DNA from: a virus
Taxonomy: Duplodnaviria; Caudoviricetes
Strand: one strand, 5' to 3'
DNA length: 64,000 nt
Virus record (IMG/VR): IMGVR_UViG_3300048691_000224
In this document: in pieces, positions 4,289-25,941 of the stretch
Layout: every line of letters begins with the position of its first letter
Numbering within the stretch: the stretch's first letter is position 1
Made by a program: the position numbers and the translations under genes
Notes under the pieces: generated by a model
Told to the model about the DNA's origin: nothing
The model's input: only the letters and a program-made list of their open reading frames with translations
Database searches by the model: none

Positions 4289-4843
4289 TTAAGTTCTCAC
4301 ATAGTCGACAAAGACAAAATTATCTCCGTCGAGCTCGCCGGCTTTATTTACAGGCACAAAGTTTGTGGAAATCGCCTTTATGGGGTAGAATACATCGCAA
4401 TCATCTGTGTTCTTGACTACAGTCATGTAACAGTGTGTTGTGAAGGGTAGTGTTTCTACAAACAAATAATACCCTCCAATTACAAATACAGTCTCACCAT
4501 CCTGCATGATGTTTATATCACGCAATTTACCTACGCTGGGAATTTTGGTGGCGTGGGCCGGGGTAAAGTCCTCAGTATTACTAACAACATAACACTTGCG
4601 ACCTGGCAGAAATTCAATACCCTTCTCTTGAGCAATTCGCTCAACATCCAGATACGTCCTCCTCCCCATCACGACAGTGTGCCCCATAGTCAGTTCTTTG
4701 AATCGCTTCAAATCTTCCTTTATGTACCAAGGTTGTTTGCCGTCTTTGCCGATTCCACCGTACGAATTGACACTGACGATGTGCTTGAAGCCGTTATCGA
4801 TAGTTAGTGCGTTAACCGCAGGGGTTACATTTTGAAATATCAT
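4289..4843 (-). CDS. frd: dihydrofolate reductase
   Basis: GIGKDGKQPW..KEDLKRFKELT.G..VVMGRRTY, VIGG, CDVFYP motifs. Confidence 0.95.
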   Translation of the reverse strand: MIFQNVTPAVNALTIDNGFKHIVSVNSYGGIGKDGKQPWYIKEDLKRFKELTMGHTVVMGRRTYLDVERIAQEKGIEFLPGRKCYVVSNTEDFTPAHATKIPSVGKLRDINIMQDGETVFVIGGYYLFVETLPFTTHCYMTVVKNTDDCDVFYPIKAISTNFVPVNKAGELDGDNFVFVDYVRT

Positions 4844-5053: not shown

Positions 5054-5533
5054 TCAGTCCTCCAACTTAGAGTGATATTCGCTCGTGAGCACGATTCTTG
5101 GTAGTGTTGATACGTCAGGCAACTCACCTGACCATTCCTTAGACAGTGTGATGTGAGGGAGATACTCATCATAATCATACTCAGCTCCACACTTCATGTA
5201 TTCTTTGAACCTCTTTGTCGCATAGGGACACTTCACACGGACTACCAACAGTTTAGTCTGGGTATTTGGTGTTTCAAACACATCAAACTTAGTCGGCTGA
5301 GCCTCCACATTCTCCAGATCAGTTTTGAGAGTGGTCCAATCATACTCAAATGGTGTCTTTGAGTACGCAGTTGTGATGTGTAGGTCGTACTCATCATCAA
5401 TTTTGATATTATGATTGCGCGCCCAATCTTTGATGGCAGCAATACTGGTATCACTCAGTGAGAGTGCAGCATAATCCCCGGCGGGTTTCTTTGCTTCCAA
5501 TAATATATGGAGTTTCTTGATGAATTCAAACAT
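5054..5533 (-). CDS. 2H phosphoesterase (T4 gp57B/Acb1-like)
   Basis: Two HxT motifs (LHITTAY, PHITLS) about 75 aa apart in a 159-aa protein. Confidence 0.8.
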   Translation of the reverse strand: MFEFIKKLHILLEAKKPAGDYAALSLSDTSIAAIKDWARNHNIKIDDEYDLHITTAYSKTPFEYDWTTLKTDLENVEAQPTKFDVFETPNTQTKLLVVRVKCPYATKRFKEYMKCGAEYDYDEYLPHITLSKEWSGELPDVSTLPRIVLTSEYHSKLED

Positions 5534-6110
5534 TTGTGTCTAGTGCTTTATTGAAAATAGTACGAATCATTCTGACCGCTTTGAGTGCAGCTTGAGCATC
5601 TTCAAGTGAATTGTGCTTGTCACGAACTACATTGAACATCTCAAACAACTCATTCGAGTCCTTGGTGTTATATAGGATAGACCCAACTGAGAACGAATCG
5701 ATGCTGTGCCCCGACAACTTGAGAGCCATGTTGTATTTGTCGAACCAACTTAGTAAGAAATGCCGGTCGAACGTATCTACATTGTGTCCACCAAGCGTTA
5801 GAGCCTTGTTCGTGTCGAAGTTTTCGCTCAAGAATTCACAGAATGCTGCAAGAGCTTCCTCTTCTTCAACACCATTCTCCTCTAGGTACTCTCTCGACAG
5901 TCCGTGTACAGCCTCTGCTTCACTGTCCCACAAACTCATACCATTTGGTTTAATTTCAATATAGAATGAGTTTCCTTCTTTGAGCGTTTTAGTATCTGAT
6001 ACTACCCCTCCAAGGGATACAATTTGGTACTTGTAGCCGTTGCTCCGATCCATGCCGGTATTCCTACTATATCCACTAGTCTCAACGTCAATGAATAAGA
6101 CTTTGCTCAC
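5526..6110 (-). CDS. DEDDh 3'-5' exonuclease (DnaQ-like)
   Basis: IDVETSG, HNVDTFD, HNSLEDA motifs. Confidence 0.9.
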   Translation of the reverse strand: MSKVLFIDVETSGYSRNTGMDRSNGYKYQIVSLGGVVSDTKTLKEGNSFYIEIKPNGMSLWDSEAEAVHGLSREYLEENGVEEEEALAAFCEFLSENFDTNKALTLGGHNVDTFDRHFLLSWFDKYNMALKLSGHSIDSFSVGSILYNTKDSNELFEMFNVVRDKHNSLEDAQAALKAVRMIRTIFNKALDTNV

Positions 6111-6694
6111 AATACGTCCTTATCAAATTCTGTCGTTGGACGAGCAATATTGCTGGTGGCTGTGTCCTTCCAGGATGTACCAAGTTGATTGTTGTACGTA
6201 CCATCATACAACTTAGCTGAATCACTGTCCCACAACACCATCTGGGCTAACCGCATATTCTCTTCAACGGCGATTGTGTAATTGACGTGTAACAGCATTC
6301 CACAGTTTGTTGAAGTGAAGCCGGAATCGTACAAACCACTTACCCCAAAGCAACCATTGCGCACGAATGTACTGCGCAGGTGCAATGTTGCAGCTACCCC
6401 CAAGGGCAATGCACACCCTTCATTAAATGTAACATCATACACAGCCGGGTGCAAGAAGTACGATCGTGGTAGACTAGAATCTGCACCCGGGGTCGATACC
6501 GGTATAATAGGGGTATGATCGAGGTACTGTGTCCGTTGTTTGGATTCTGATAGGGTAACTGGTCGGTGTGGACTAGCCACCCGCGAGATAGATTTGATTG
6601 TCAAATCAATACCATCACTGCCAATTTGTTTGGTAGCGTTTAATAGTTTTGTAACAATCCCGAGGTCGTAGGCTTTTTGTGGTGAAATAATCAT
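6107..6694 (-). CDS. dCTP deaminase / trimeric dUTPase family protein
   Basis: DGIDL, LRST, GLYDSGF, RLAQMV, YDGTY motifs. Confidence 0.8.
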   Translation of the reverse strand: MIISPQKAYDLGIVTKLLNATKQIGSDGIDLTIKSISRVASPHRPVTLSESKQRTQYLDHTPIIPVSTPGADSSLPRSYFLHPAVYDVTFNEGCALPLGVAATLHLRSTFVRNGCFGVSGLYDSGFTSTNCGMLLHVNYTIAVEENMRLAQMVLWDSDSAKLYDGTYNNQLGTSWKDTATSNIARPTTEFDKDVL

Positions 6695-7542
6695 TTTTGA
6701 TACGATCTAAAAATCTCGTCAATAATTGCGAGGTTATGGGAGATGATTGAGTCATCTTTAACGGGGTGAACTGAGAAGTCTACCTCTGGTACATATTTCT
6801 TGTCAACAGGAGTCAGTGATTCACTAAATTGATTGTAAGGAATTCCACAGTGACCAAACCACACAGGATTGGAGCTATCGAGGGTATCAACGAGACCCAT
6901 CCCCAACAGTGCCGGTAACTCCAGTCCAGGATTCAACAAACCCAACCAATGGATGTGTTTGTAGTAGAATGCTTCAGCACGCTCAGTATCTTGTGTTAGC
7001 CAGGTTGCAATACGATCGGCTGCTACAACACGGACGTATGATTTTGGGATGTGGGGAAGTGCAATTGGGTGTGCGAGGATTGACATACCGATCATGTCAA
7101 TTTCAGGATTGAATAGAGCCCACTCGAAGCTTCGTAGCCACCCACCCCAATCACCTGGTGCTGATTGTGGGACGTAGAATGTTTTGAATCCCGCGTCTTT
7201 GAATTGTGGAATATATTTCTTCGCTGCTGTAATTGTGACATCGGATGGTTGCCCAGGGTAATCAGGCAACACTAATACATCAGCTCCTACCGACTTACCA
7301 ATTGTGATTAATCGGTCAGGAGCATATGACTGATTTAACTCGAAAGCTCCATTGTCGCAGATGTATGTTTCGTTGGAATACTTCGACTCCTTATAGAATG
7401 ATGCGTAGCCGGGATCATAGTGAGATGAATTGGGATCAATTAAATGTGCCAAAAGCAAGTGGAAGTCGGAGCCGTTTGCACGGGCAAATTTAGGCAAGTA
7501 TGCCGTTGGTGTGATTGTACAGAATTGTGGATGTTGTTTCAT
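6691..7542 (-). CDS. DpdA-like tRNA-guanine-transglycosylase-fold protein (putative DNA 7-deazaguanine insertase)
   Basis: TGT/DpdA-type motifs ICDNGAF, LPD, IHWLG, DTLDSS in the expected order; folE and queD in the same window. Confidence 0.7.
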   Translation of the reverse strand: MKQHPQFCTITPTAYLPKFARANGSDFHLLLAHLIDPNSSHYDPGYASFYKESKYSNETYICDNGAFELNQSYAPDRLITIGKSVGADVLVLPDYPGQPSDVTITAAKKYIPQFKDAGFKTFYVPQSAPGDWGGWLRSFEWALFNPEIDMIGMSILAHPIALPHIPKSYVRVVAADRIATWLTQDTERAEAFYYKHIHWLGLLNPGLELPALLGMGLVDTLDSSNPVWFGHCGIPYNQFSESLTPVDKKYVPEVDFSVHPVKDDSIISHNLAIIDEIFRSYQK

Positions 7543-7574
7543 GGATGTTTGAATATAGTGATGGGAGTGATCTA

Positions 7575-7603
7575 ATTATGTGGTAATCTAAAGATGGTGT
7601 CAA
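7575..7603 (-). promoter_or_regulatory. sigma70-type promoter for the DpdA-like/dcd/exonuclease/2H/DHFR cluster
   Basis: TTGACA-N17-CATAAT on the minus strand. Confidence 0.6.
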
Positions 7604-7606
7604 AGC

Positions 7607-7816
7607 TCACTTAGTGGGTCTACTCGACTTTACTATTTTAGCAATGGATGTAGGATCAAATAACCCCGAATGTACAACTTCGCCGTCAACCAATATGCAC
7701 CGGGTGGTTCTCGTTGCTCGAGCAAATCTCAAAAATGAGTCGACATCACAATCTGGTAGTGCATATTCGATTTTGTTGGTTATTGAGCTAAACTCTGTTA
7801 CTGTTCTTGATTGCAT
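7607..7816 (-). CDS. hypothetical protein
   Basis: 69-aa ORF in the minus-strand run. Confidence 0.55.
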   Translation of the reverse strand: MQSRTVTEFSSITNKIEYALPDCDVDSFLRFARATRTTRCILVDGEVVHSGLFDPTSIAKIVKSSRPTK

Positions 7817-7826
7817 GTAGTATGTT

Positions 7827-8066
7827 CTAGTTAGTGGTTAATCGAATAGGGTAGAATGTTTCGCATGGAGAATCGGCTCCAATATCTCTACAGGGGTGGC
7901 AACAAAACCACACCTCCCAACCAGACTTATCTTCTTCGGTTGCGCCTGTCCACACCTCCTCTGTGTGCCCAACATCACTACCACAAAACATGCAGGTTGG
8001 GTCAAGGGGGTAGCGAGATTGGTCGATGCGTTGCTGAACTTCAAAAGACATAAAATCTGATCTCAA
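7827..8066 (-). CDS. small Cys-containing hypothetical protein
   Basis: CMFC and CCHPC motifs. Confidence 0.55.
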   Translation of the reverse strand: MRSDFMSFEVQQRIDQSRYPLDPTCMFCGSDVGHTEEVWTGATEEDKSGWEVWFCCHPCRDIGADSPCETFYPIRLTTN

Positions 8067-8073
8067 TGAGTTA

Positions 8074-8433
8074 TTAAACTTTCCTACCCATCGTATGAAA
8101 GTCTTTGCTGTCTGTAATTACTTGGTACGCACCTTTGTTACAGATTGGTGCTATGGTAGCAGTAACTGTTAGCACCGGCTTGTGAATTGGGGTTGTGCCA
8201 TTTCCGACCAGGTCACCATAGGACGAGAGCTTCGGCGACTCTCCACGAGGCGGAGATTTTGGTTGCCAAAAAGAGTTACTATTAGTGGTGGTCTTGGTTG
8301 CCGAGGCGGATGTGTTGGCTCGGTATCGAAGCTTGAGGGCTTCCCATTCGACTAACAACTCTCGCTGCGCTTTTGTTAATTTTTTAGGTTTACTTTTTGT
8401 GGATGTGTATATCATAGTGTATGCAGCATACAC
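8074..8433 (-). CDS. conserved T4-like phage hypothetical protein
   Basis: C-terminal IAPICNKGAYQVI motif recalled from T4-like phage proteins. Confidence 0.65.
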   Translation of the reverse strand: MYAAYTMIYTSTKSKPKKLTKAQRELLVEWEALKLRYRANTSASATKTTTNSNSFWQPKSPPRGESPKLSSYGDLVGNGTTPIHKPVLTVTATIAPICNKGAYQVITDSKDFHTMGRKV

Positions 8434-8442
8434 ACATCTGAA

Positions 8443-8766
8443 TTAGTTGACAACAGACAGTGGAGTAGATGATGCGAGAACGGCTTGTTGTTCTAATTTT
8501 CGGCGAGCCTCAGTGGCTACCCAACTTTTTTCATAAGCGCCTTCATCAAGCAGCTTGAGAGTTCCGATAGCCCGCAACCGCGTCAATCCTTGCAAGACGG
8601 GGTTATTAGACAGGCAATCCGCCAACAGCAGTTCGTACATCTTATTTCGCTGTGTGAGCTGAACCTGAGTTATTTGATCACTGGGTAGTGCATATAGTGC
8701 GATCACGACCCTAAACCAAGCAAAAAATGTTGCTGGAGTTGGGACGATTTTAGTTAGAGAGGCCAT
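8443..8766 (-). CDS. hypothetical protein
   Basis: 107-aa ORF overlapping the upstream gene. Confidence 0.6.
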   Translation of the reverse strand: MASLTKIVPTPATFFAWFRVVIALYALPSDQITQVQLTQRNKMYELLLADCLSNNPVLQGLTRLRAIGTLKLLDEGAYEKSWVATEARRKLEQQAVLASSTPLSVVN

Positions 8767-9124
8767 TTATTTGGACAAAATTTAATGTATCTTCAGGTGC
8801 CCCTACACTCCACACATCAACTGTTTGCTCTCCATCGGGACTCTTGCGAGAGTGTTTGGAAATATCTGTACCAGCAAGAATTGCTGTGTATACCACATCT
8901 TCGCGCTTAGCTAACTTGTTGCTTTTGTATATCCACAGTTCACTGTACCGAGTAGCATCATCTTTGCGTTTATATACCAAGTGAGCGCCTTTAACAGTAC
9001 GGATAGTACCTTGTTTGTTTGGATCATCCTGATCTTCCGTTTGATCATCAACTTGATCTTCTGTGGTGTCAGGGATAGCAGCAAAAGATACGATTGGAGA
9101 TTCTAGGATTTGAAATAATCGCAT
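8750..9124 (-). CDS. conserved jumbo-phage hypothetical protein, possible head-packaged protein
   Basis: GTIRTVKGAHLVYKR...ELWIY...ILAGTDI; late-promoter-like CTAAATA at 9152-9158; N-terminus MRLFQILE/S. Confidence 0.7.
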   Translation of the reverse strand: MRLFQILESPIVSFAAIPDTTEDQVDDQTEDQDDPNKQGTIRTVKGAHLVYKRKDDATRYSELWIYKSNKLAKREDVVYTAILAGTDISKHSRKSPDGEQTVDVWSVGAPEDTLNFVQINGLSN

Positions 9125-9226
9125 AATATTAGATTGTTTTAAGTGTATTACTATTTAGGAGCGTGACTACAAGGATAGTCCGACTAAGTACACCTTGAAT
9201 ATCTCAGCACTCAGCTCAACATACAC

Positions 9227-9559
9227 GTGAAGAAACTACAGACCATTACCCGCAACGGAAAATTACATACCTTTTTTCCGGATGTTTTAATTGACGATCA
9301 CGTGAAAGGTTTTTTAGTAGATCAATCATGCACCCACATAATATTATCACTTGAGGTATTGTGGCAGGACTTTACTACAATCTGCGGAGAGGTGCCGGCG
9401 GCGACACATTACTTCAGTTTGTATATCGCTAGTGTCGTTGAGGAAAGTCTTAGTTCTAAATTTTATACCCACTACGTATCATTACCGACAACACAGGTAC
9501 TCACTAGTGGAGAACCACTAGTGTCGTTTTGCTCGATTGTGAAGAAACATCGCTTGTAA
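9227..9559 (+). CDS. hypothetical protein
   Basis: Only substantial ORF filling the gap; GTG start; convergent overlap with 9518..9835. Confidence 0.45.
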   Translation: MKKLQTITRNGKLHTFFPDVLIDDHVKGFLVDQSCTHIILSLEVLWQDFTTICGEVPAATHYFSLYIASVVEESLSSKFYTHYVSLPTTQVLTSGEPLVSFCSIVKKHRL

Positions 9560-9835
9560 TGATTCGGTAATCACCATGTCGATGTAGCTCTGTCCTAGTT
9601 CTGTCAACTCTCCGACATCATCGATAATACCATACTCAACACACTTCGCTTGAGTTGCAACTACATCCACAACAACGCTCTCAGGGCCTATCGAAATCAA
9701 GTGTTCGGATTCCAAGAGTTTGCCAAAAGACAGTGTCTTGGTGTTAGCATTTACCAAGTTGTAACAATCAATCGCCGAATCTCGTGATTGCCACAGTTGG
9801 GCTAGTAGTGCTAATTGTAAGTCGGACAGTATCAT
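9518..9835 (-). CDS. hypothetical protein
   Basis: 105 aa, ATGA overlap with upstream ORF. Confidence 0.6.
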   Translation of the reverse strand: MILSDLQLALLAQLWQSRDSAIDCYNLVNANTKTLSFGKLLESEHLISIGPESVVVDVVATQAKCVEYGIIDDVGELTELGQSYIDMVITESLQAMFLHNRAKRH

Positions 9836-10203
9836 GGAGTTGGGTGATCGATTACAGCAAGTGTATCTACAACTACATACGCAGTATTGGAGTCTTGTTT
9901 CACTTGATGTGAAATAGACGTCAGTTTGCTTGCAGATTTTTTGCCTTTGAAAATATCGGCGATTGTTGGGACTGTAGTCTTATTTGGCAAGCTATCCAAA
10001 AATTCACCAAATGTTGGCACATCGTGTGCTTCTGTCACTGCTACTTGAGGTTGGTATGATGTGATAATTGGGAATGCTTGTACTACACTCCCTCTAGTAT
10101 CTGCTGAAATAGCATCTGCAATAGAGCGTTCGCTAGTTATGCTGTGGATTGTGTTGTTTACCAACACAACGTATGCTGATGTAGAGTCTGAGAATGATGC
10201 CAT
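9832..10203 (-). CDS. hypothetical late protein
   Basis: 123 aa; GATAAATA late-promoter-like site at 10231-10238 on the minus strand. Confidence 0.65.
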   Translation of the reverse strand: MASFSDSTSAYVVLVNNTIHSITSERSIADAISADTRGSVVQAFPIITSYQPQVAVTEAHDVPTFGEFLDSLPNKTTVPTIADIFKGKKSASKLTSISHQVKQDSNTAYVVVDTLAVIDHPTP

Positions 10204-10255
10204 GGTATGTTACTACTGTAGTTAGTTAATTATTTATCTGCGTGGTGTTAAGAAC

Positions 10256-10570
10256 TCAGAGCCGCAATTCCCACGATTTGTGAAGGATACCTGTGCCGGT
10301 CTTGGATATTTTGTATGATGCTTTCTTGATAAGCATATCCACTAGGTGTTGAGTTTCATCAATCGTTTTCTTGTCGTCCGCAGTGAATGTGAGTGATGTT
10401 CGTTGATAGGGAGGCAACTTCACGATATCCTGAAACTTCTTGCTAGCTGGGATCATCACTTTGAGCTTTTTGTTCATATTAAAAGCAACTATCCCTGTTG
10501 CGAATCCAGCCGCAATTGTTAGCAATGATGTGCTTAGTGCAGATTCCGCGAGTACAGTTTCGAGTCTCAT
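10256..10570 (-). CDS. hypothetical protein
   Basis: 104 aa; N-terminus MRLETVLAE/S followed by a hydrophobic segment. Confidence 0.65.
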   Translation of the reverse strand: MRLETVLAESALSTSLLTIAAGFATGIVAFNMNKKLKVMIPASKKFQDIVKLPPYQRTSLTFTADDKKTIDETQHLVDMLIKKASYKISKTGTGILHKSWELRL

Positions 10571-10582
10571 GTGGTCACAACA

Positions 10583-10876
10583 CTACTTCGATGGGGTTTG
10601 ATTCACCGCATTCAACAGTGATTCTAGCTGGCTAGCGTAAGTCTGCAATTGCACAATTGTGACTCTATACGCAATTACCAACTCTGATACTGAGCTTGTA
10701 GGAGTGATTTTAGCAATTTCTAGGGCGGGGCGGGGTGGCACTACAACCTTGGGTAGATCCAGTGCAACAGGCACTTCAACAACTTGGGTTTCTACTCGAA
10801 CAAACTTAGATTTCGGGAGCGCAAAGCATCCACTGAGTAGTACACACAACACGACGGGTAAAATTATTTTTTCCAT
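10583..10876 (-). CDS. outer-membrane spanin (o-spanin, Rz1-like lipoprotein)
   Basis: Signal peptide with lipobox LSGC, Pro-rich body, overlaps the 3' end of the i-spanin. Confidence 0.8.
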   Translation of the reverse strand: MEKIILPVVLCVLLSGCFALPKSKFVRVETQVVEVPVALDLPKVVVPPRPALEIAKITPTSSVSELVIAYRVTIVQLQTYASQLESLLNAVNQTPSK

Positions 10877-11292
10877 TGTAAGGCCTCTAGGTTTCTTAGC
10901 ACACTAATTGCATCAACACAAGTAAGGGCAATATTTTCATCCTGGCGAATAGTCGCAATCTTGCGGTTGCCATCGACAACCACTCGTTGGTTGGACTTTT
11001 CAGCAGTGGTTACTCTCGTTTGTTGCTCAATAACTTGGGTCTTGAGTTTGTTGACAGCCGCATTTTGGAGTGCTATTGTGTCTCGGAAGCTATCTGCTTG
11101 TTGGGTATTCAACTCTGAAGCAACAATTAAATCTGTTTCTTGTTGTTTAACTTTGACTTCGAGTTTAGATACCACTGATTGTGAGTGTTGCAGCATACCA
11201 TACATGACGATAATGACTATCGAACATACGCCATACCCCCAGGCGGCGAGTGGTACTCGTCTTAATAAAGATACAATTATTGATATACTCAT
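10864..11292 (-). CDS. inner-membrane spanin (i-spanin, Rz-like)
   Basis: N-terminal transmembrane helix then coiled coil; TATAAATA late promoter at 11322-11329. Confidence 0.75.
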   Translation of the reverse strand: MSISIIVSLLRRVPLAAWGYGVCSIVIIVMYGMLQHSQSVVSKLEVKVKQQETDLIVASELNTQQADSFRDTIALQNAAVNKLKTQVIEQQTRVTTAEKSNQRVVVDGNRKIATIRQDENIALTCVDAISVLRNLEALQWKK

Positions 11293-11337
11293 GTGCGTAT
11301 GGCCACTGTTGGTCTGTGGTCTATTTATACAAAAGCG

Positions 11338-12291
11338 TCAAAACGAGAAGTCAGACTCATACGCCTTACTTTGGCGAGTGGGGACTTGTCTGGGAATCGA
11401 ATCGAACATATTATGCAGCATATTGTCAACCAACATACCAACGTGGCGTTGCCTATCAATTTTATCAAAGAATTCATCCTTGAACCACTGAGGAATCATC
11501 TCCTCATCTGTCGGGACAGCAATCGCCTTAAACATACGACCGGCGTGTTCCATTTCATATTTTAGTTTGAAAATCTTAATTTTCATACCACTCGATATTA
11601 ACAGCGACTCAGTATCTCCCGCAGCTTGTCTAAAATCATTATATAAAATTGCTGCTGATACATGGCCGGGTAGGCGTGTAGTTGGGTAGTCTCTAAACGA
11701 GGCTGTGTACTGTTCAATTCCCTTGATACCTTTTGGAAGGCCGAGATCCATTAGATCAATCTCATCAATCATTTCATCACGATATTCCATGATAAAATCA
11801 TCTAGCTCTTCATCAGGGGTTCCTGTAAGCATTTTGTGACACGTAGATCGCAGGAATGCTTTGACGGGGCGGGGGGTCGTAGTCTTGCGCATGTCGACCC
11901 CCATAGCCTTCAGTTCATCCTTGGCCTTGCCTTCTTTGTCGATCACATGGATGACATACCGCTTCTTCTGAATGAAAAATCCTTTATCAGCAACCAATTC
12001 TCTACCAGTTTTAATGTGCTGGTCGAACCCGGGTTGTACCAAGAATGCTGATCGATTGTACGCGGGGAATGAGGCATTGATCTCATGACCTATCTTGTCA
12101 GCAATCTTAACTACAAGGTTTGGATTGGCATTGGGTGGGATTATCTCACTGAGTGAACAATACAAACTGTTGTGCACCAATATACCGTTGGCGAAAAAAT
12201 TATGTACCCCATCAACCTCAATGTCGTACACATCAAGCTCTTGTAGACCCAAATCAATAATTTCAAAATTATCTGTCTCAACTATATTCAT
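11338..12291 (-). CDS. split-intein C fragment (41 aa) fused to the C-terminal part of family-B DNA polymerase
   Basis: VYDIEVDGVHNFFANGILVHN then +1 Ser; followed by PolB motifs KKRY, KAMGVDMRKTTTP, PGHVSAAILYN. Confidence 0.92.
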   Translation of the reverse strand: MNIVETDNFEIIDLGLQELDVYDIEVDGVHNFFANGILVHNSLYCSLSEIIPPNANPNLVVKIADKIGHEINASFPAYNRSAFLVQPGFDQHIKTGRELVADKGFFIQKKRYVIHVIDKEGKAKDELKAMGVDMRKTTTPRPVKAFLRSTCHKMLTGTPDEELDDFIMEYRDEMIDEIDLMDLGLPKGIKGIEQYTASFRDYPTTRLPGHVSAAILYNDFRQAAGDTESLLISSGMKIKIFKLKYEMEHAGRMFKAIAVPTDEEMIPQWFKDEFFDKIDRQRHVGMLVDNMLHNMFDSIPRQVPTRQSKAYESDFSF

Positions 12292-12298
12292 CTATTTT

Positions 12299-13372
12299 TT
12301 ACTCTTCAGGGGGATCACGAGGTGGTAGTTTATATTCTGCACGTATTATGTCAAGCACGTGGCTGGGATCACGATCAAAATCTCGCTCCCACACTACTAT
12401 AGTGCGATAGTTCCGGCTTTGTATGTGGGCAAGTTTTTTAGCGTCTGCGTCCCAACACTGAGATGCGGTTTTTCTGCCTCTACCGCGGAGTGCTTTTGGG
12501 AAGTCGGTTGGACCATATAGCGTTGGATTCCCATGATAGTGATCCCCGTTGAATTCTATACAAATCTTGTGGTTGGTATCAACGTAATCATATTTGTAAA
12601 ATCGTCTACCCAACGGGTCAAATGACCCAAATTCGGTATTTTTTGTGGCGTAATATACGTGCTCATCCGGAAGCTGTAAGTCATTGACTATTAAGTCGAA
12701 CAATACTTGCGACTTTACGGAATAAAAGTTAAATTGATTTGAGAACTTCTCAACCAATTTCTGAGTAGCAAGCTCAATATCCCCATACCGTTGGATATAG
12801 TTGTCAATTGTGTGGGCTTTAGATTTACATAGCGCATCCCATACTACCAACCCCTCATCCACCCCATGCTTGTCCTGGAACCACTGTAGGGATACTCCTG
12901 CAGTTCGTTGCTTCTCGACATAACTGGTCCATCTAAGCAACCCCTCTTGTTCACCATGGCGGGCGATCATTCTTTCTTTAGTCTGCTTTCTGGTTGAGTT
13001 GTATTCATCAAACTGATCGAGGGTCCACCCATGTGTACGCGATTTATACACAAATGTATTTTTTTCAGCCATGAATGCCCGACGTGCGGCCCATTTTGCA
13101 TCTGCGTAAGCGCCGTATGATAATACGTAGCGGTCATATGTGTGGGATAACCCTCCTTTATGCTCAATAACAATCCTCCAATACCGATCAAACATATTAG
13201 GTTCGATCTTATGAATTTCATATTTCAAGAAGTTATACGTAAACTTGTGGTGATTTTTGTTCCCACTATCTTCCAATTGCTTACTCAGTTGCTGGTATTT
13301 AATTAAGTCGATATCTGATATGTCTAGGTTGAATGTAGTTGCTTTATTGCGTAGTGTTCGTAAGGTTAGCAT
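12299..13372 (-). mobile_element. free-standing Vsr/DUF559-like homing endonuclease inside the fractured polymerase gene
   Basis: C-terminal YDYVD...IEFNGDHYH...DAKK...IVVWE; sits exactly between the intein halves; GTAAATA at 13398-13404 upstream. Confidence 0.8.
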
Positions 13373-13374
13373 GT

Positions 13375-15870
13375 TTATGGAGATACAGATTCGGGGGTAT
13401 TTACACTAATCAACTTATCCCCCCTTACTATATTCATCGGTGTTGTGCTTATTATTTCAGTGCCGCGGCGGACTATAATGGAGTGATCAGCTGTTATAGT
13501 AACCGATGCTCCATTTACCCTAACCTCAAACATGCGTTTTTTGACAGTATGTTTCATGACATAATTAATGGGTTTGGTTACTGGGTTGGACCCATCAAAA
13601 CCCACACTCGTTGAGCCGACTACTCGCTTGACATAATTGTTGGTAATCGGGTCGTGTTTTATGAAATCACCTGGCTGCTCCTCGTAAAACTGGGCAATAG
13701 TTTTTTGAATTCCGTTTACATAAATCGCGGTACCCCCAACAACCGAGTCGGTGTCGCCATAGATCAGACATGGGCTTGCAATCTCGTTGTTGATCGCCCG
13801 TGGGTCTTCATCACTAGTAATTGGGTTGATGTTGTAATCTCCATCTATAATTTCACAACCCTTGCGAATTTGGTGCCCGAGTATGCACCTACCTGTTGCA
13901 GTCACTGATTGCCCCATCCGCTTATCATAGAACCGGAAATTTTGATTGAGTAATGCACCGTATGCTGAATTGAGCTTAATTTTCATCGCATATTGCGTCA
14001 TATCTGCGAATTCATACTCTGTCTGCAGTAATGCCGCTTGATGAGCATCAGTCGTTGCTGCTATGGCACCCAATACTTGTTTGGATTGAGCTTGGAATTG
14101 CTTCCTTGTCGAATACCACCTACCGAGTAATGCTGGAATGATGCCTTCAACATCTTGGCGGAAAACTGTACCGTACCCTGAAATGGCATACTTCAGTTCA
14201 ATGAGATGCTCCTTCCACATTCTAGCTGACTTAGTTTCTACTTCCTGAGTTTTTTCCCATCTAAATGTTAATTGGGCGGTTGACCCAGCATTAATCTCAG
14301 TCCACGCAGACTCAAACTCACTGAATTGTCCGATTAACGTCTCGGGTGAAATGTTGACGGTGCGGATTGTATTTGGGTATAGAGAATTTATATCATAACA
14401 AACTATCCAGTTATGCATACCAGTTTGCGGAACTAACACATATGCACCGGCAGCTTGCCCTTGTTCGTCTAGCTGTTTTGTATCAGGGACCCGAACATTT
14501 AACTCGTACCAACAGTAATTATTGATAGCCATCTCTGCAGACCGGACAGTACCCACAATGTTTTTGAAATGGCACGTAGATTCATGAATTAGTGTATTAG
14601 CTAAATTTATAAATTTATACTTCTTATCTAACTCTCGAAGAATTTCAGTGTCACGGCAATTGTACCTCACAAACTTACTAAAGTTGTTGTTGTACAGATG
14701 GTGCAGAGTGCCTTCGTAATCCAACTTCTTGAATCGCTCGCCGAGATGGTCCTGGGAAACAGTTTCCAAGTTCCACGAGTCTCGATCCTCGACTGTAAAC
14801 TTCTTGAATAACTCCATGTAGTCGAGTGTGACGCGGCCATCAAACTGAACAAATAATTGCTCTTGGAAGAATACTTCTTTGGTCTGGAACCACGGCGCTT
14901 TACCTTTTGGAAATGACAGCATCTGCAACCACTCTTTGCCTAACACAATCTCCACTCGTTTAGCGAAGTATGGATCATCAAATCGTGAGGAGTTCCAACC
15001 AGACAACAAATCTGATTGTTGAATTTCCTCAACGGACCGAGTGAGTAGCTCAGTCTCATTTTTACAGAACACAATTGTAACCTTGGAATCAATATCTTCA
15101 AATAAACTGTAGTCAAACAGTTCTTCGACATTGCATCCTGTCCAGGACTTGGGTGGGACAGAAAAGATGACGTACTCGTCTTTCCAGGTGTGGTAGAACG
15201 CAATTGAGTTTAGTGGTGCGTATGGATCGAGTGGTGAGCTGAAACCGATTGGCCCATCGTATGTGTACAATGAATTTTTAACCGCCACCCACTTCTTTAC
15301 CGGCTCATCCCACACCTCAACATCAGGATCGCTCCTATAATCGCGAAGGTCCCAAACTGTAGCTTCGAAGGATTCTGAACCAATATTGCGAAGTTTGATT
15401 TTATGGTCCGCGTCGTACTTTTTGGGCCGGTAATCTACCTCGATGTCATAGTATGTTGTGTTGATGTGAGGCAATTCACATTTATAATACAGCGCACTCA
15501 GCGCCTTTAGTTCAGGTGGAATGTCGCTCTCAAATAAATCAACATCGATTGGTTTGCTATCTAGAAACTTCGACATCTCCTTCTTATTTGAGAATTCTAG
15601 TTCATACAAATCATCACCAAACATTGATTGATATTTGGTAGTTTCATCAATTGCAGTAGTACCAAGCCCCAGAAACTTTTTTAACACTCCATCAGGCGTT
15701 CCTTCTTCTACCGAATCACTAAACTCAGCGTGGGTTGAGTACCAGTCGCTACACTTGATGTAGCAATTGTACAGCGCCCTGACTGTCTTAATCGTCGGGG
15801 CGTGGTTAGGTGTCAGGCGTTGTTCCCAGATGGTTACGTGATCGAAGTGTCTACTAGCTGCAATGTACAT
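13375..15870 (-). CDS. family-B DNA polymerase N-terminal part (gp43-like) fused to split-intein N fragment (123 aa)
   Basis: Exonuclease motifs YDIEV and GWNSSRFD; YDINSLYP, KIKLNSAYG, YGDTD; then SVVGGTAIYV...VTITADHSIIV intein blocks A and B from 13746. Confidence 0.95.
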   Translation of the reverse strand: MYIAASRHFDHVTIWEQRLTPNHAPTIKTVRALYNCYIKCSDWYSTHAEFSDSVEEGTPDGVLKKFLGLGTTAIDETTKYQSMFGDDLYELEFSNKKEMSKFLDSKPIDVDLFESDIPPELKALSALYYKCELPHINTTYYDIEVDYRPKKYDADHKIKLRNIGSESFEATVWDLRDYRSDPDVEVWDEPVKKWVAVKNSLYTYDGPIGFSSPLDPYAPLNSIAFYHTWKDEYVIFSVPPKSWTGCNVEELFDYSLFEDIDSKVTIVFCKNETELLTRSVEEIQQSDLLSGWNSSRFDDPYFAKRVEIVLGKEWLQMLSFPKGKAPWFQTKEVFFQEQLFVQFDGRVTLDYMELFKKFTVEDRDSWNLETVSQDHLGERFKKLDYEGTLHHLYNNNFSKFVRYNCRDTEILRELDKKYKFINLANTLIHESTCHFKNIVGTVRSAEMAINNYCWYELNVRVPDTKQLDEQGQAAGAYVLVPQTGMHNWIVCYDINSLYPNTIRTVNISPETLIGQFSEFESAWTEINAGSTAQLTFRWEKTQEVETKSARMWKEHLIELKYAISGYGTVFRQDVEGIIPALLGRWYSTRKQFQAQSKQVLGAIAATTDAHQAALLQTEYEFADMTQYAMKIKLNSAYGALLNQNFRFYDKRMGQSVTATGRCILGHQIRKGCEIIDGDYNINPITSDEDPRAINNEIASPCLIYGDTDSVVGGTAIYVNGIQKTIAQFYEEQPGDFIKHDPITNNYVKRVVGSTSVGFDGSNPVTKPINYVMKHTVKKRMFEVRVNGASVTITADHSIIVRRGTEIISTTPMNIVRGDKLISVNTPESVSP

Positions 15871-15904
15871 TGATTTGGGTGTTTTGTATACTAAGAAAAG
15901 ATAA

Positions 15905-15931
15905 AACTCACCTAATATTATCAGGTGAGTT
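15905..15931 (-). terminator. probable intrinsic terminator after queD
   Basis: 9-bp stem AACTCACCT/AGGTGAGTT followed on the minus strand by TTATCTTTT. Confidence 0.55.
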
Positions 15932-15959
15932 GTGAGTTGTTAGCTAGATTGTAGTAGGA

Positions 15960-16475
15960 TTAAAATTCAGAGAGTAGATCTTCATTCCACTCTCTGTGAC
16001 CTTCCCGAAAGGCCATATTCGCTTGTGTTTCACGGACCTCAACTTTATAGCACCAGAGCCGCTCAGCTTCGCTTTGCCCCAACATGTCGGGAATGTAAAC
16101 GCCATTGACGTATTTGTATAACATGTCTGCCAATCCTTCACAGCCCAATCTAGGGAGGATCGTTAGCTTAGCAATGCCTGCACTCTGCATTGCTTCATAG
16201 AGCGTAATATATGGATCATCCTGGGCGACTAGTAGTGTATGGTCAAATTGATCTGCCAAAACTTGTTTTAATTCTTTGAGGCCGCCATAGTCACAAACCC
16301 AGTTTCTTTTGTCAAGATCATTTGTACCGAAGTAAAACTTCATTGAAAAACAGTACCCGTGTACAGTGTTGCACCAGGTGTCTGATTTCCACTGGCGATA
16401 TGCACACGGGAATGCGTCAACGTACTCTTTTGTGGATGTGAATTTGTATGCGATTGGCTGATGTTGTGGGGTCAT
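15960..16475 (-). CDS. queD: 6-carboxy-5,6,7,8-tetrahydropterin synthase
   Basis: CAYRQW...CNTVHGY, NWVCDYGGLKELK, FDHTLL, GCEGLA motifs. Confidence 0.85.
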   Translation of the reverse strand: MTPQHQPIAYKFTSTKEYVDAFPCAYRQWKSDTWCNTVHGYCFSMKFYFGTNDLDKRNWVCDYGGLKELKQVLADQFDHTLLVAQDDPYITLYEAMQSAGIAKLTILPRLGCEGLADMLYKYVNGVYIPDMLGQSEAERLWCYKVEVRETQANMAFREGHREWNEDLLSEF

Positions 16476-17437
16476 TGTAATCTTTCTGTAGTATAGTTAA
16501 TAAATTCGCTCAGAACTTCTACTGTTTGTTGCTCCGTGAAGTCAGATCGGACGACAAAGACTTTGTACCCTCGATCTTCAGCCATTTGTATTTTAGCTTG
16601 GTCTTTTGAATATTTTTGTGCATATGTCATGCCAGTTATCTCCATCAGCTCATCAGGAAATTCCTCAGCTTGCTGTTTAGTTGGGTGCCACCGAAATCCA
16701 TCATACTCTAAAATTGATTTGGCTTCACGTACACAGAAATCATAAAAATTAACACCACTCTTAGAACTCAAAAACCACTCACATTTGGATTTGTCGGAGG
16801 AACTTCTGTAATACAGCGAGTAATTTAATAGCCATGGATTTTCCAACAACACTCGATCGATTAGTATTTCAGCTTCCTTCGAATGGCCGATAGACTTGAA
16901 AATTTTCTGGAGGTAACGGGCGTATAATTCGTGACCAAGCTCACCATGCTTGTCGATGTAAATTTGGAGCTTTGTTTTATTACCATATCGCTCTTTTTTG
17001 GTTGCGGATGATTTCGCAGCTCTCGTCGTGATGTGGTATTGCCGTTCTGTCTCAGATAGATTGGACCAATACTTATCAATAGCAGCTTTTCGTTTTGCAT
17101 GCATTGCATCTACCGCAACCTCTCCACCACTTGCTCGGACTAGAGCGACAGTGTTCTTCTTAGCGACAGTGTCCTGCCATTTTTTTCTACCTAACTCTTC
17201 ACCCCACCTAGCAATCATATTTTCTTCCGACTGCCTGGATTTATTCACATGATTATTAAATCTAGTTAAACCATCTAGTGGATATCTCCACACAAACCAC
17301 TCCTTGGTTAGTCGTGTATACGGGTGAGTGGCGTAAGTTTGTGCTCGTATAGCCAATCGCCGTTGGGTAGCCTCAAATTTCTCAACCCCTCGATCGTTAC
17401 CATATTTATCGATGTAGTCTTGTACCGTCATTACCAT
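16472..17437 (-). mobile_element. free-standing Vsr-like homing endonuclease, paralogue of 12299..13372
   Basis: FYDF...ILEYDGFRWH...KDQAK...GYKVFVV; shared ENMIARWGEELG / ERMIARHGEQEG repeat motif. Confidence 0.7.
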
Positions 17438-17476
17438 ATCCGTGCTCCTAATTAAAAGAGTATTTATACACGGATA
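17437..17476 (-). promoter_or_regulatory. late promoter TATAAATA (17461-17468) within a hairpin that occludes the endonuclease SD and start
   Basis: 8-bp inverted repeat at 17437-17444 / 17469-17476; AGGAG SD can pair with CTCTT in the loop. Confidence 0.75.
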
Positions 17477-17522
17477 CTAATTATAGGTAGCACGTTAGGG
17501 TCATAATTATTTGCAGTATACT

Positions 17523-17705
17523 TTAATCAGTTGAGTTATCAGTATGGAGGTCAGGATTCAGATCTTCTTCAATTTCTTCGTGGTCGGACCACTCAACGTT
17601 CGGTTGTTTTGTGCCGAATATTCTATCCCAACCTGTTCGATATGAGTCTGATGCTTTCTTGGAAATCAGTGCGTCACCAGTGATGTCATTGCGGGCTGTG
17701 GTCAT
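17523..17705 (-). CDS. small conserved phage protein (60 aa)
   Basis: Start reassigned to MTTARNDITGD...YRTGWDRIFG, with ATGA overlap on the folE stop. Confidence 0.65.
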   Translation of the reverse strand: MTTARNDITGDALISKKASDSYRTGWDRIFGTKQPNVEWSDHEEIEEDLNPDLHTDNSTD

Positions 17706-18394
17706 GATAATTTTTGACGGGCGATGGCCAGAAATTCTGAGCGGACACTCGAGTCGGTTACAAATTTTCCACTCATCGCACACGTTGTTGTATCCGAAGC
17801 TGTATCTTTTGCTCCCCGTGTTGACATACACAAATGTGCCATGGATGCAAACACAGCGACACTGTCGGATTTTGTGACAAACTTGACAGCTTCCAAAATT
17901 TGATGTGTGAGACGTTCCTGTACCTGTGGGCGGGCGGCGAAAAAGTTCGCAATTCGACTCAACTTTGACAACCCAAGCACTTTATCCGCTGGAATGTAAG
18001 CGATCACAATTGAAGGTTGGTTCAAGCCACCCGCAGGAATTATGGACAAAAGGTGATGTTCACACTGAGAAGCCGCAGAAACTGCGACTGCAACAAATTC
18101 ATCTGGTGCTGACATCTTATTGTCTACGGTCGTGCACTTTGGGAAGTTGTTGTAATCAAGCCCCCACATCATATCATCTACCCACATCTTAGCAACCCGC
18201 ATCGGAGTCTCTGTTAAGCTATCATCCGTCAGGTCTAAACCAAGCACTTCTAACATTGCTTTGGTACTCGCTTCAATAGCGGCTAATTTTTCCGCTCTGG
18301 AAGCGTTCACCTTATCTGTAGTCGGTGTCTCGAGACCGAGAGATTTCAAGTGGGTGTGTACTTGACTTCCAAGTAATTTATCTGTGCTTGCCAT
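17702..18394 (-). CDS. folE: GTP cyclohydrolase I
   Basis: ETPMRVAKM, SQCEHHL, LGLSKL.RI..F..RPQVQERLT, HLCM..RG motifs. Confidence 0.95.
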   Translation of the reverse strand: MASTDKLLGSQVHTHLKSLGLETPTTDKVNASRAEKLAAIEASTKAMLEVLGLDLTDDSLTETPMRVAKMWVDDMMWGLDYNNFPKCTTVDNKMSAPDEFVAVAVSAASQCEHHLLSIIPAGGLNQPSIVIAYIPADKVLGLSKLSRIANFFAARPQVQERLTHQILEAVKFVTKSDSVAVFASMAHLCMSTRGAKDTASDTTTCAMSGKFVTDSSVRSEFLAIARQKLS

Positions 18395-18417: not shown

Positions 18418-18702
18418 TTAAATCAATTGAATGCCAGAAACCTCTGTGAGGTACTGCTTCTCAAAATCGGGGTGTGGAGTACTTACAACAACAACGTGCT
18501 TGCGATCCAATTCAAAATCTTCTTTGTCATTGTTACTCATCAGTACGGGAATGAGTGCCATGCCGACCCCGCCTCCTTGTTGAGGCATGATGTGGAGTTT
18601 GCGGACTTTTGTCAGCGACAAGACTGTATTGGAGTCGAGTGTCTCTTGTTGCTGAGCAATCCATTCAGCGCCGTTAGTTAGTAGAATTGATACTGTTTTC
18701 AT
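18418..18702 (-). CDS. conserved T4-like phage hypothetical protein
   Basis: 94 aa ending EKQYLTEVSGIQLI. Confidence 0.65.
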   Translation of the reverse strand: MKTVSILLTNGAEWIAQQQETLDSNTVLSLTKVRKLHIMPQQGGGVGMALIPVLMSNNDKEDFELDRKHVVVVSTPHPDFEKQYLTEVSGIQLI

Positions 18703-19249
18703 GTGCTTTCTTTTGTTTTAGTAGGTATCTTAAAATTGTATCGTATTGAAACTTGTTACTAGGATCAAATTTGATATATTTGATATTTTGAGATATAAGA
18801 TGAGTTGTGATCAACTCATCGATCACCTTCGCTTGATCTACATCTTCATTTCTGCCTAGATGACTGTATGGTAGTGAACCACGATCGATGAATAGGTTTA
18901 CATTATTGTAGCTCTTGTACACTTTGTTCACAAGAGCGCTATACTCATCGAATGGGCAATATTTGTCGTATGGGCGTTGGGACGCATACACAACTGGCAA
19001 GTTGATTGGAGAATCACATACTGCAATCTCACACTTACCTACAACTGATCGCAATAGTCGATGTTGTTGAGCAAAGCAATAATCAGGCTGATCAAATACA
19101 TCTGTGTGTCCCCACCAAGCAGCGTCCTTGACAAATTCGTACACATACTCAGTCGTTAATCCAGCTAATTTCAAATCATACGTCAGGCGTAGTGCTGTAG
19201 TTGATTTGCCAGCGCCAGGGCCAGCATACAGGTTAACGACTATTGTCAT
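18674..19249 (-). CDS. P-loop kinase / NadR-like AAA protein
   Basis: Walker A AGPGAGKST; CDSP Walker-B-like motif. Confidence 0.8.
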   Translation of the reverse strand: MTIVVNLYAGPGAGKSTTALRLTYDLKLAGLTTEYVYEFVKDAAWWGHTDVFDQPDYCFAQQHRLLRSVVGKCEIAVCDSPINLPVVYASQRPYDKYCPFDEYSALVNKVYKSYNNVNLFIDRGSLPYSHLGRNEDVDQAKVIDELITTHLISQNIKYIKFDPSNKFQYDTILRYLLKQKKAHENSINSTN

Positions 19250-19452
19250 GTTGTGGTGGGAGTAGTACTAACAGAATCTGTATATTGTCGAATACTCTTG
19301 AACAGTGGAGACTCAGGAGCTGTGGTGTACCAAGACACAGCATTACTAACCGTATTCGCGACCCACGCTTCGTGGACTTGTTTGAATTCTCCCGTAGATC
19401 TTTCCCGTGTCAGATACTTCTCAATATCTGCGTGCGTTATAATGGTGCTCAT
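19246..19452 (-). CDS. hypothetical protein
   Basis: 68 aa with ATGA overlaps on both sides. Confidence 0.55.
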   Translation of the reverse strand: MSTIITHADIEKYLTRERSTGEFKQVHEAWVANTVSNAVSWYTTAPESPLFKSIRQYTDSVSTTPTTT

Positions 19453-20117
19453 TTGATTTGTCCTAATAGTGTATACCGTTGATATGCAGCACAGTATAGT
19501 ATGTTACATGAAATGATGTCAACATGCTTGTGTGCTTGTTCAACCAAATCAAATATTGAATTGCAACAATTGACGTGCCCTTCACAGTCGAATAGATTAT
19601 TGCTCTGCAGCAATATAGTCTGCCCTCGTTGAAGCATACTCAACCACATCGGAAGATCAGGTATGTGTTCGCAACTTGTGTTTATTACTACACCGTAATC
19701 ACCGTACAACTGGAAGTCGTACATATCAACAGTAACAGCAGTAAAACGATTTGGATCACGGATGTACGCGTCTGCGATCGGTGCTACAGTTGGGTCTATA
19801 TCCAATGAAGTAATGTGTAAGTTTTGTTTCTTACTCAACAACAATTTGCTTAGTGTACCATACCACCCACCAACCACCAGAGCTGTGTCGTGGTCGAGAC
19901 CTGTGTTGTATAGCATATCGCAAGCTAATATCTTACTCGCAAGTTGTCCCTCTGATAGTGCGTCTCTGACGGCATCAGCTTGCACTCGCATTGGTTGGTG
20001 GTATAGTTCGCTAACAAGGTCACTGGTTAGGGCAGCAGGAATGTGGTTATCGCTCAATATATCCCAAGAGTAAGAAGTTGTGAGGTGTAGTACTAGATCA
20101 GTGTGTGATGTATTCAT
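19449..20117 (-). CDS. class I SAM-dependent methyltransferase-like protein
   Basis: VVGGWYG (motif I), SLDID (motif II), VINTSCEH. Confidence 0.75.
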   Translation of the reverse strand: MNTSHTDLVLHLTTSYSWDILSDNHIPAALTSDLVSELYHQPMRVQADAVRDALSEGQLASKILACDMLYNTGLDHDTALVVGGWYGTLSKLLLSKKQNLHITSLDIDPTVAPIADAYIRDPNRFTAVTVDMYDFQLYGDYGVVINTSCEHIPDLPMWLSMLQRGQTILLQSNNLFDCEGHVNCCNSIFDLVEQAHKHVDIISCNILYCAAYQRYTLLGQIK

Positions 20118-20829
20118 TGGGTGATTGTGATGTCCATTGGTCTCTCAACCATGTGAAATTATTAATGAGTGTTGGATCTATATTCTGATCATACCACGTT
20201 TGTGCAGCACAAACCCCAGCGTTATATTCCAATTGATATTCAGTATTCGGATCATCCGTACGCCAGAGGCTAAGCCTCGCTATCACATCAGCATATTCTG
20301 TGTTGGTCGATAACTCAGCTAGTGATAGGGTAGTTTCGTAGTGGTGTTGAGCGGTTGCTAGTTTAAACACCTCCCGAGCTGTTGCTCTGAATGTGTGGAA
20401 TGGAGTTTGGTCAAAATGAGTTATACTTGCGGGTGGAGTGTTCATGCATTTTATGCCGAGTCCTCGCGTCGAGCAGAAATCAATCCATGTGGGTGGTTTG
20501 TCTACGGTCATCAACTGAGTGTTGAATAATTTTATACCACCGTAACCATACGTGCTACCGTTCACAATATTTTTTGTTGGCCATATGTGGGTATATCCCT
20601 GATCCCAAGGTTGGACCTCAGTGTCAAACTTAAACGTACTCAATGGTTCATTATCACCATCAATTACATAAAACATCTCAGTGCTAGCAAGCTTGGCGGC
20701 TTCGTAATGTGCCGCTGCTATACCAACCACACCGTGGACGCGTTTTACATATGGGAAGTCTTCCTGGAGTTTTGCATATGTTGAATCAGCGGTTGGTTCA
20801 TCATAACTAATTAGTACAATATCAAACAT
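20098..20829 (-). CDS. GT-A-fold glycosyltransferase-like protein
   Basis: Start MFDIVLISYDE; DxD motif YVIDGDN; NGSTYGYGGIKLF. Confidence 0.6.
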   Translation of the reverse strand: MFDIVLISYDEPTADSTYAKLQEDFPYVKRVHGVVGIAAAHYEAAKLASTEMFYVIDGDNEPLSTFKFDTEVQPWDQGYTHIWPTKNIVNGSTYGYGGIKLFNTQLMTVDKPPTWIDFCSTRGLGIKCMNTPPASITHFDQTPFHTFRATAREVFKLATAQHHYETTLSLAELSTNTEYADVIARLSLWRTDDPNTEYQLEYNAGVCAAQTWYDQNIDPTLINNFTWLRDQWTSQSPNEYITH

Positions 20830-25879: not shown

Positions 25880-25893
25880 TCAGATTCAAGATG

Positions 25894-25933: not shown

Positions 25934-25941
25934 TATTCTCT

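Follow-up and report, generated by a model that had tools for sequence, protein, structure and literature searches.

In phages that carry a DpdA3 protein, all guanines of the DNA are replaced: by 2′-deoxy-7-deazaguanine (dDG) in Cellulophaga phage phiST, by fdPreQ1 in Flavobacterium phage immuto_2-6A, and by dADG in phage CP220 (PMC10516641). The DpdA3/DpdL system of phiST, which is associated with dDG, was described by Cui, Hutinet et al. (NAR 2023; PMC10516641). The bacterial DpdA of Salmonella Montevideo (PDB 7ui4; PMC10164549) inserts preQ0 at less than 0.1% of guanines and needs the ATPase DpdB. Here, a stretch of 64,000 nucleotides from a tailed virus (IMG/VR record IMGVR_UViG_3300048691_000224) was analysed. 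This stretch, called the window below, is one strand of 64 kb, and everything said here of this phage's own genes rests on those 64 kb. It was found that the window encodes a divergent homologue of DpdA3 (P0001) together with FolE and a variant of QueD. I consider it likely that the window holds part of a phiST-type, QueC-less 7-deazaguanine DNA-modification pathway, in which P0001 would put 7-deazaguanine or a derivative of 7-carboxy-7-deazaguanine (CDG) into DNA. The strategy is of a known anti-restriction kind (DpdA3/DpdL, described in 2023), with scattered genes. A preliminary description of the stretch had named the following three genes, and all of them are present on the minus strand:

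6691–7542, minus strand: P0001, 283 amino acids, a zinc-less guanine transglycosylase-like protein with the fold of tRNA-guanine transglycosylases (TGT), assigned to the DpdA3 family from its fold, profile homology and three catalytic aspartates.
15960–16475, minus strand: P0121, 171 amino acids, a QueD-type T-fold protein of the variant here called type B (PF01242 3.5e-14; phrog_2389 9e-34).
17702–18394, minus strand: P0122, 230 amino acids, GTP cyclohydrolase I, FolE (NF006824 233 bits; PF01227 3e-47).

Like phiST, the window has a short zinc-less TGT-fold protein and a FolE gene plus one of the QueD type. The search of the window for QueC found none, and in relatives of its phage there are QueE-like genes and a DpdL homologous to CGPG_00067 of phiST. 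On the other hand, the phiST genes form one 4-kb cluster, whereas here the module genes are spread over at least 12 kb, and queE and dpdL, if this genome has them, lie outside the 64-kb window. The pairwise identity of P0001 and the phiST DpdA3 (CGPG_00065) is 23%. The window phage itself is of the T4-like jumbo type and has a polymerase of family B, and the modified base of its DNA is a prediction. P0001 belongs to the same family as the DpdA3 proteins of immuto_2-6A and CP220, with 25% identity over 222 amino acids and all motifs aligned; immuto_2-6A has the same CxxxHGY variant of QueD as the window, and a kinase-like gene adjoins its DpdA3 gene. In contrast, QueC, QueF and DpdN are further genes of immuto_2-6A, and a QueC-like gene occurs in CP220; the window yielded none of these, and the searches for QueF and DpdN were confined to it.

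The four motifs on which the preliminary description based a DpdA-type TGT-fold protein are all found in P0001: DNGAF (residues 63–67), LPD (92–94), HWLG (198–201), and DSS (222–224). D63, N64, D94, H198, L200, G201, and D222 are invariant among 27 family members and four DpdA3 proteins, and the D-x3-F spacing (D63/F67) is also invariant in both groups. Thus, the motifs are not a matter of chance. In the bacterial DpdA, the corresponding residues are Asp95, Phe99, Asp130, and the nucleophile Asp256 (PMC10164549). By analogy, D63 may be assigned the role of Asp95, F67 that of Phe99, D94 that of Asp130, and D222 that of Asp256.

The AlphaFold2 (AF2) model of P0001 (pLDDT 91.7, pTM 0.90) also has the TGT fold. 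In an exhaustive structure comparison with 48,161 chains, the top five were all members of the TGT superfamily (Z 15.0–17.4), namely arcTGT (17.4), DpdA 7ui4 (16.2), bacterial TGT (15.6), and then QTRT2 and Cap10 (15.0). Generic TIM barrels come next in the same comparison with Z of at most 14.4, and because they score nearly as high, the fold alone is not decisive. Foldseek with the same model against the PDB gave 50 matches in the list, all of the TGT superfamily (E about 4e-8 to 3e-7). In BFVD, which holds predicted viral structures, the second match is a 259-residue protein of phiST (TM 0.74–0.80), which equals the prototype DpdA3, CGPG_00065, in size. Like the bacterial DpdA, P0001 has a TIM-barrel TGT fold with three aspartates and the stacking phenylalanine, whereas it is shorter, with 283 residues against 413, and the large insertion that follows strand 8 is missing. 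It shares fold and catalytic residues with the tRNA-modifying TGTs (bacterial TGT and arcTGT) as well. Unlike them, P0001 and its family lack the zinc-binding subdomain with its C-terminal CxCxxC...H cysteine cluster, P0001 has no PUA or tRNA-binding domain, and HMMER searches of PDB sequences with P0001 or its profile found no TGT.

Sequence-profile homology is the decisive evidence that identifies P0001 as DpdA3. In an hhalign comparison of the P0001 family with DpdA3 of immuto_2-6A, CP220, and Weizmannia phage Youna2, 226 columns were aligned, all motifs in register (probability 99.6%, E 6.8e-24). A hidden Markov model (HMM) of these three DpdA3 proteins matched P0001 and nothing else in the window (E 1.1e-14), while the TGT model PF01702 did not match P0001; this was a check that the preliminary description had proposed. 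The HMM of the P0001 family alone matched CGPG_00065 of phiST (E 4.2e-18). A tblastn search with the immuto_2-6A DpdA3 against 50,697 phage records found the P0001 homologue of Aeromonas phage Ahp1 at 7e-5, and P0001 and the DpdA3 proteins fall into one cluster by single-linkage blastp. In unrooted trees, P0001 belongs to a separate, well-supported clade that includes neither immuto_2-6A nor CP220. The named DpdA3 proteins surround it as long branches at scattered positions, and a tree that unites the known DpdA3 proteins in one clade is not rejected (approximately unbiased test, p-AU 0.26). P0001 is therefore filed, on profile homology, as a full-length homologue and a divergent member of the DpdA3 family.

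The preliminary description had also called the protein divergent, and its database matches agree with this. P0001 has no match in Pfam (E 0.01), PHROGs, or NCBIfam, nor any PDB match at the sequence level. Its close homologues number more than 500, none of them named, and its profile matches 3,441 clusters at 50% identity (E of at most 1e-3). One homologue, P0018, which is 65% identical to P0001, lies on a 320-kb ENA contig (ERZ27249359 k141_565240). A match to P0001 was not found in the related record G001, an 11.9-kb fragment, and a search of phage records at the DNA level gave no match. For the comparison of gene content, I used 20 relatives, namely four cultured phages with P0001 homologues (Vibrio phage D479, Rhizobium phage RHph_I1_18, Vibrio phage Bakedbeans, and Ahp1) and 16 IMG/VR contigs, of which one is complete and another 90% complete. 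The homologue in RHph_I1_18 (EVB91_073) is a DpdA3-like protein of 422 amino acids annotated solely as 'DUF3310 domain-containing'.

P0122 is FolE, as had been proposed. Its NF006824 score of 233 bits exceeds the cut-off of 202, and the zinc and catalytic motifs CEHH and HxCM (HLCM) are kept. The claim that P0121 is QueD stood in part. P0121 belongs to the 6-pyruvoyl-tetrahydropterin synthase (PTPS) family with its T-fold domain, as judged from PF01242 (53 bits against a cut-off of 22.4) and phrog_2389, which is labelled 'QueD-like'. The canonical QueD signature was not found: P0121 reads CxxxHGY (C35-NTV-H39-G-Y41) and not CxxxHGH, the first zinc-ligand position is Tyr25, and TIGR03367 gives 36 bits where its cut-off is 89. 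P0121 retains the cysteine, the central histidine, and the DH pair. As far as these sequence features tell, P0121 is a 'QueD-type, variant B' protein and not a canonical QueD. The type-B form is the sole PTPS-family protein of immuto_2-6A and the sole PTPS match in a complete 350-kb relative (G013). In sister phages, it takes the same slot in the order QueE-NUDIX-QueD that canonical HGH forms take elsewhere. P0121 is probably a working equivalent of QueD.

Two interchangeable forms of QueD were seen in the relatives (L072–L080, L001, and L003). Type A reads F.YGHRV...C..LHGH and has about 205–222 amino acids; type B reads (A/V)(Y/F)RQW...C...HGY and has about 150–195. One contig, G009, has both types side by side.

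The preliminary description had reported that QueE and QueC are absent from the window, which the searches bore out. With HMMs and tblastn in all six frames of the window, no phage QueE, QueC, QueF, DpdN, or DpdL was found, and the DpdA3 HMM, used as a positive control, recovered P0001 at 1e-14. The radical S-adenosylmethionine (SAM) cysteine motif occurs in no real open reading frame (ORF) of the window. An HMM built from the DpdL proteins of ten relatives matched nothing in the six frames of the window or of the related contigs L024–L027. Two candidates were rejected. The sequence AHRHSF in a plus-strand ORF (1738–2274) had suggested DpdL; the DpdL HMM gives it no support, and it is taken as a chance occurrence. 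The ORF at 16472–17437, considered as a hidden QueE, lacks a cysteine motif and is paralogous to the PD-(D/E)xK/DUF559-like endonuclease associated with polB.

A QueE-like gene is present in 15 of the 20 relatives. It encodes a protein of about 300 amino acids with the motifs QGEG...GC, TGGEP, and ETNG, in which an insertion of 37–41 residues separates the third cluster cysteine from the second. DpdL, a QueD paralogue predicted to be a CDG decarboxylase, occurs in 16 of the 20. This protein of 124–140 amino acids is encoded immediately upstream of the transglycosylase gene and carries LxxxHRHxF, the published DpdL signature. The DpdL family of the relatives matches CGPG_00067, the DpdL of phiST, at 2e-13; it also matches a protein of Acidovorax phage ACP17, in whose DpdL neighbourhood no member of the P0001 transglycosylase family was found. 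In Vibrio phage Bakedbeans, DpdL is the C-terminal domain of a 393-residue protein (gp176). Within the window's own subclade, contig G003 carries DpdL 28 kb from the transglycosylase gene. A search for QueC (PF06508) covered 19 of the 20 records and gave one match, weak and partial, in D479; the gene was found in none of the three other cultured relatives and in none of the IMG/VR contigs. The two records that are at least 90% complete both have the QueE-like gene and DpdL, and QueC is absent from both. No TGT of the PF01702 type was found in 14 of the relatives or in immuto_2-6A.

P0001 itself is present on contigs of up to 221 kb, and the genome of this phage, a large and uncultured one of the T4-like jumbo type, measures 221 kb or more. 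By analogy with the relatives, queE and dpdL probably lie elsewhere in this genome. Since the relatives carry QueE-like and DpdL proteins, and QueC appears as a single weak partial match, the base is expected to be 7-deazaguanine or a CDG derivative and not preQ0. Among the explanations that the preliminary description had offered for the missing genes, a location elsewhere in the genome and a non-standard base are thus the favoured ones.

The pathway may then be pictured as follows. FolE would convert GTP to dihydroneopterin triphosphate (H2NTP), and the type-B QueD would turn H2NTP into 6-carboxytetrahydropterin (CPH4). A QueE-like radical-SAM enzyme encoded outside the window would form CDG from CPH4, and DpdL, also encoded outside the window, would most likely decarboxylate CDG to 7-deazaguanine. 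P0001 would exchange guanine in the phage DNA for the modified base by a TGT-type double displacement, with D63 as the acid/base, D94 in base recognition, and D222 as the nucleophile. Modification would protect the DNA from restriction enzymes and other nucleases. Alternatively, the modified base may be dCDG or a derivative of unknown kind.

Several points weigh against this pathway. The authors who named DpdA3 and DpdL did not succeed in reconstituting either activity in E. coli (PMC10516641), so that DNA insertion by DpdA3 is itself presumed. The window contains neither a QueE-like gene nor DpdL, and among the 16 IMG/VR relatives no more than two had a FolE. Two of the three zinc histidines of a canonical QueD are missing from P0121.

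The window genes belong to the early, nucleotide-metabolism arm of a T4-like phage genome on the minus strand. Their neighbours on that strand include the family B polymerase, ribonucleotide reductase, dihydrofolate reductase (DHFR), ClpP, and genes like those of gp46, gp47, and gp55, with baseplate genes further on. The features around the three pathway genes are as follows:

3587–4270, minus strand: ClpP-like protease, after DHFR.
4289–4843, minus strand: DHFR, 2 kb from P0001.
5054–5533, minus strand: Acb1 anti-CBASS phosphodiesterase (PF23474 8e-24), directly after the DpdA3-like/dUTPase-like/exonuclease run.
5526–6110, minus strand: RNase T/DnaQ-like 3′-5′ exonuclease, third gene of the tight run (PF00929 2e-9; phrog_192).
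6107–6694, minus strand: dUTPase/dCTP-deaminase-like protein (PF22769 4e-11; NF002598 66 bits, under the cut-off; nearest PDB entry the archaeal-type dUTPase 9w59).
7575–7603, minus strand: sigma-70-like promoter match TTGACA-17-CATAAT (11/12, a consensus match only), just upstream of the P0001 start codon.
16472–17437, minus strand: P0243, free-standing homing-endonuclease-like ORF (weak DUF559 match; phrog_22677, common to the polB-associated P0244).
17523–17705, minus strand: small conserved ORF of about 60 amino acids whose start overlaps the folE stop (coding-type substitution pattern in the alignment with L024).
18674–19249, minus strand: P-loop AAA_28/thymidylate-kinase-like protein upstream of folE (PF13521 2e-6; phrog_2107).
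19449–20117, minus strand: class I SAM methyltransferase-like gene upstream of folE (Atlas feature score 0.98; Pfam match weak).

In jumbo relatives, a recurrent gene order was found: DpdL, DpdA3-like, dUTPase-like, exonuclease, phosphoribosyltransferase (PRTase), u170, QueE, NUDIX, and QueD. In the window's subclade, only the DpdA3-like, dUTPase-like, and exonuclease genes are kept side by side as a run; they overlap by 4 nt and are followed by Acb1, DHFR, and ClpP. The start of the dUTPase-like gene overlaps the P0001 stop by 4 nt; its homologue adjoins the DpdA3-like gene in 15 related loci, and the exonuclease homologue is a conserved neighbour in 11. FolE and QueD lie on the other side of polB from this run. 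The two loci separated by the family B polymerase gene (11338–15870, minus strand) were thus rightly recognised in the preliminary description.

The nearest relative, L024, whose P0001 homologue is 77% identical, has the order kinase, FolE, small ORF, QueD, and an uninterrupted PolB of 1001 amino acids. In the window, the homing-endonuclease-like ORF (16472–17437) stands between folE and queD; it is absent from L024. The window's polB is fractured at the YGDTDS motif. In one ORF (13375–15870), residues 1–709 make up the N-extein, which ends at YGDTDS, and an intein piece of about 122 amino acids comes after it. Next to it lies the free-standing PD-(D/E)xK/DUF559-like endonuclease ORF P0244 (12299–13372), paralogous to the ORF at 16472–17437, and a further ORF (11338–12291) encodes a 40-residue C-intein piece ending in HN|S and then the C-extein. 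The split of folE from queD and the break in polB are therefore explained by homing-endonuclease and intein insertions that L024 does not have, and P0243 is not part of the pathway. In this lineage, folE, the small ORF, and queD abut without a leader, and an Rfam search for a queD-leader riboswitch found nothing.

Other features of these loci were noted. The gap 17438–17522 (minus strand), before the inserted endonuclease gene, contains TATAAATA, which resembles a T4 late promoter, with an inverted repeat on its flanks and next to an AGGAG ribosome-binding site. The ribonucleotide reductase small subunit (24070–26991, minus strand) also lies in two ORFs, with a homing-endonuclease ORF (24920–25879; phrog_314) between them, and its C-terminal piece carries a thioredoxin-like domain. 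The genes upstream of folE (18418–20883, minus strand) also include one for a 261-residue viral protein of unknown fold family. In L024, the kinase gene alone among them keeps its position. The kinase-like protein (18674–19249) is possibly a nucleotide kinase; in Bakedbeans, its homologue is encoded two genes away from the DpdA3-like gene. A PRTase (PF00156), a NUDIX hydrolase, and u170, a 170-residue protein of unknown function, are conserved inside the module in the IMG/VR jumbo contigs L071–L080, and the PRTase is also in the immuto_2-6A cluster (L001). These three neighbours are not discussed in the DpdA3 paper (PMC10516641).

This neighbourhood bears on the main alternative, which I regard as unlikely: 7-deazaguanine would enter DNA at replication, by way of the nucleotide pool. 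Either the PRTase would convert the free base to a nucleotide, or base exchange on dGMP or dGTP would be carried out by the DpdA3-like enzyme; kinases would raise the product to the triphosphate, and NUDIX, MazG, or dUTPase-like enzymes would remove dGTP. The place of the PRTase, NUDIX, and dUTPase-like genes inside the module and that of the PRTase in immuto_2-6A are in keeping with such a route, as are the dNMP- or thymidylate-kinase-like genes that flank DpdA3 in CP220, immuto_2-6A, and D479 and the one upstream of folE here. The complete replacement seen in DpdA3 phages would be easier to explain via the pool, the DpdA3 proteins consist of the TIM barrel only and have no counterpart of the insertion with which the bacterial DpdA binds DNA, and the ADG nucleoside is mentioned for CP220-infected cells in work cited by the DpdA3 paper (PMC10516641). 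However, all characterised enzymes of the TGT superfamily act on a polymer, be it tRNA, DNA, or, for Cap10, protein. The PRTase could equally recycle the released guanine into GTP; dUTPase-like, exonuclease, and kinase genes are ordinary in the nucleotide-metabolism clusters of T4-like phages; and neither PRTase nor NUDIX was found in the window. If the nucleotide-pool route were true, it would explain why complete replacement is seen only with DpdA3 and would overturn the view that all such modification is post-replicative, and the type-B QueD, poor in zinc histidines, would be a distinct enzyme class.

It is a good deal less probable that the three genes are the remnant of a pathway that has lost queE and dpdL, either using CDG, preQ0, or preQ1 of the host or decaying. 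The nearest contigs (43, 29, 28, and 82 kb) have no QueE-like gene, and three of them have no DpdL, which would fit a loss, but all four are fragments of 20–23%. Moreover, G003 of the same subclade has DpdL, and none of the three window genes is broken or has lost its conserved catalytic residues.

Slightly less probable still is a supply of pterin or folate for thymidylate, boosted by FolE, the PTPS-family protein, and the nearby DHFR, with P0001 unrelated to it. The enzymes of the PTPS family are catalytically promiscuous, and this, the DHFR gene 2 kb from P0001, and the lack of the canonical QueD motif speak for it. Against it, the same QueD variant directly follows QueE-NUDIX in sister phages and serves as the sole PTPS protein of immuto_2-6A, whose DNA contains fdPreQ1; P0001 homologues co-occur with the QueE-like and DpdL genes in the proportions given above; and FolB, FolK, FolP, or another gene of the folate pathway was not seen. 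The least probable reading is that P0001 modifies host or phage tRNA like the bacterial and archaeal TGTs, which are among its closest solved folds, given that it lacks the PF01702 match, zinc subdomain, and PUA or tRNA-binding domain, that the window contains no tRNA gene, and that its nearest sequence relatives are the DpdA3 proteins of phages with fully modified DNA.

Post-replicative insertion by P0001 thus remains the preferred reading, and what it means reaches beyond this phage. A family of phage proteins of about 250–300 amino acids, invisible to Pfam, PHROGs, and NCBIfam, belongs, judging from profile homology, to the DpdA3 guanine-transglycosylase family. Its members are labelled 'hypothetical' in the isolates D479, Ahp1, and Bakedbeans, and in RHph_I1_18 the label comes from the fused DUF3310 domain only. 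What is new here is the assignment to DpdA3, from sequence, of this large clade, which had no annotation and to which genes of four cultured phages belong, together with the description of the type-B QueD and the documentation of a conserved neighbourhood of nucleotide enzymes. The non-canonical form of QueD and the conserved genes nearby for the PRTase, NUDIX, and dUTPase-like proteins may help to explain how DpdA3 phages reach 100% replacement. If the reading is true, many T4-like and jumbo phages, cultured ones included, would have guanine replaced by 7-deazaguanine, and the replacement would affect restriction, CRISPR, and nuclease sensitivity as well as the sequencing and cloning of phage DNA.

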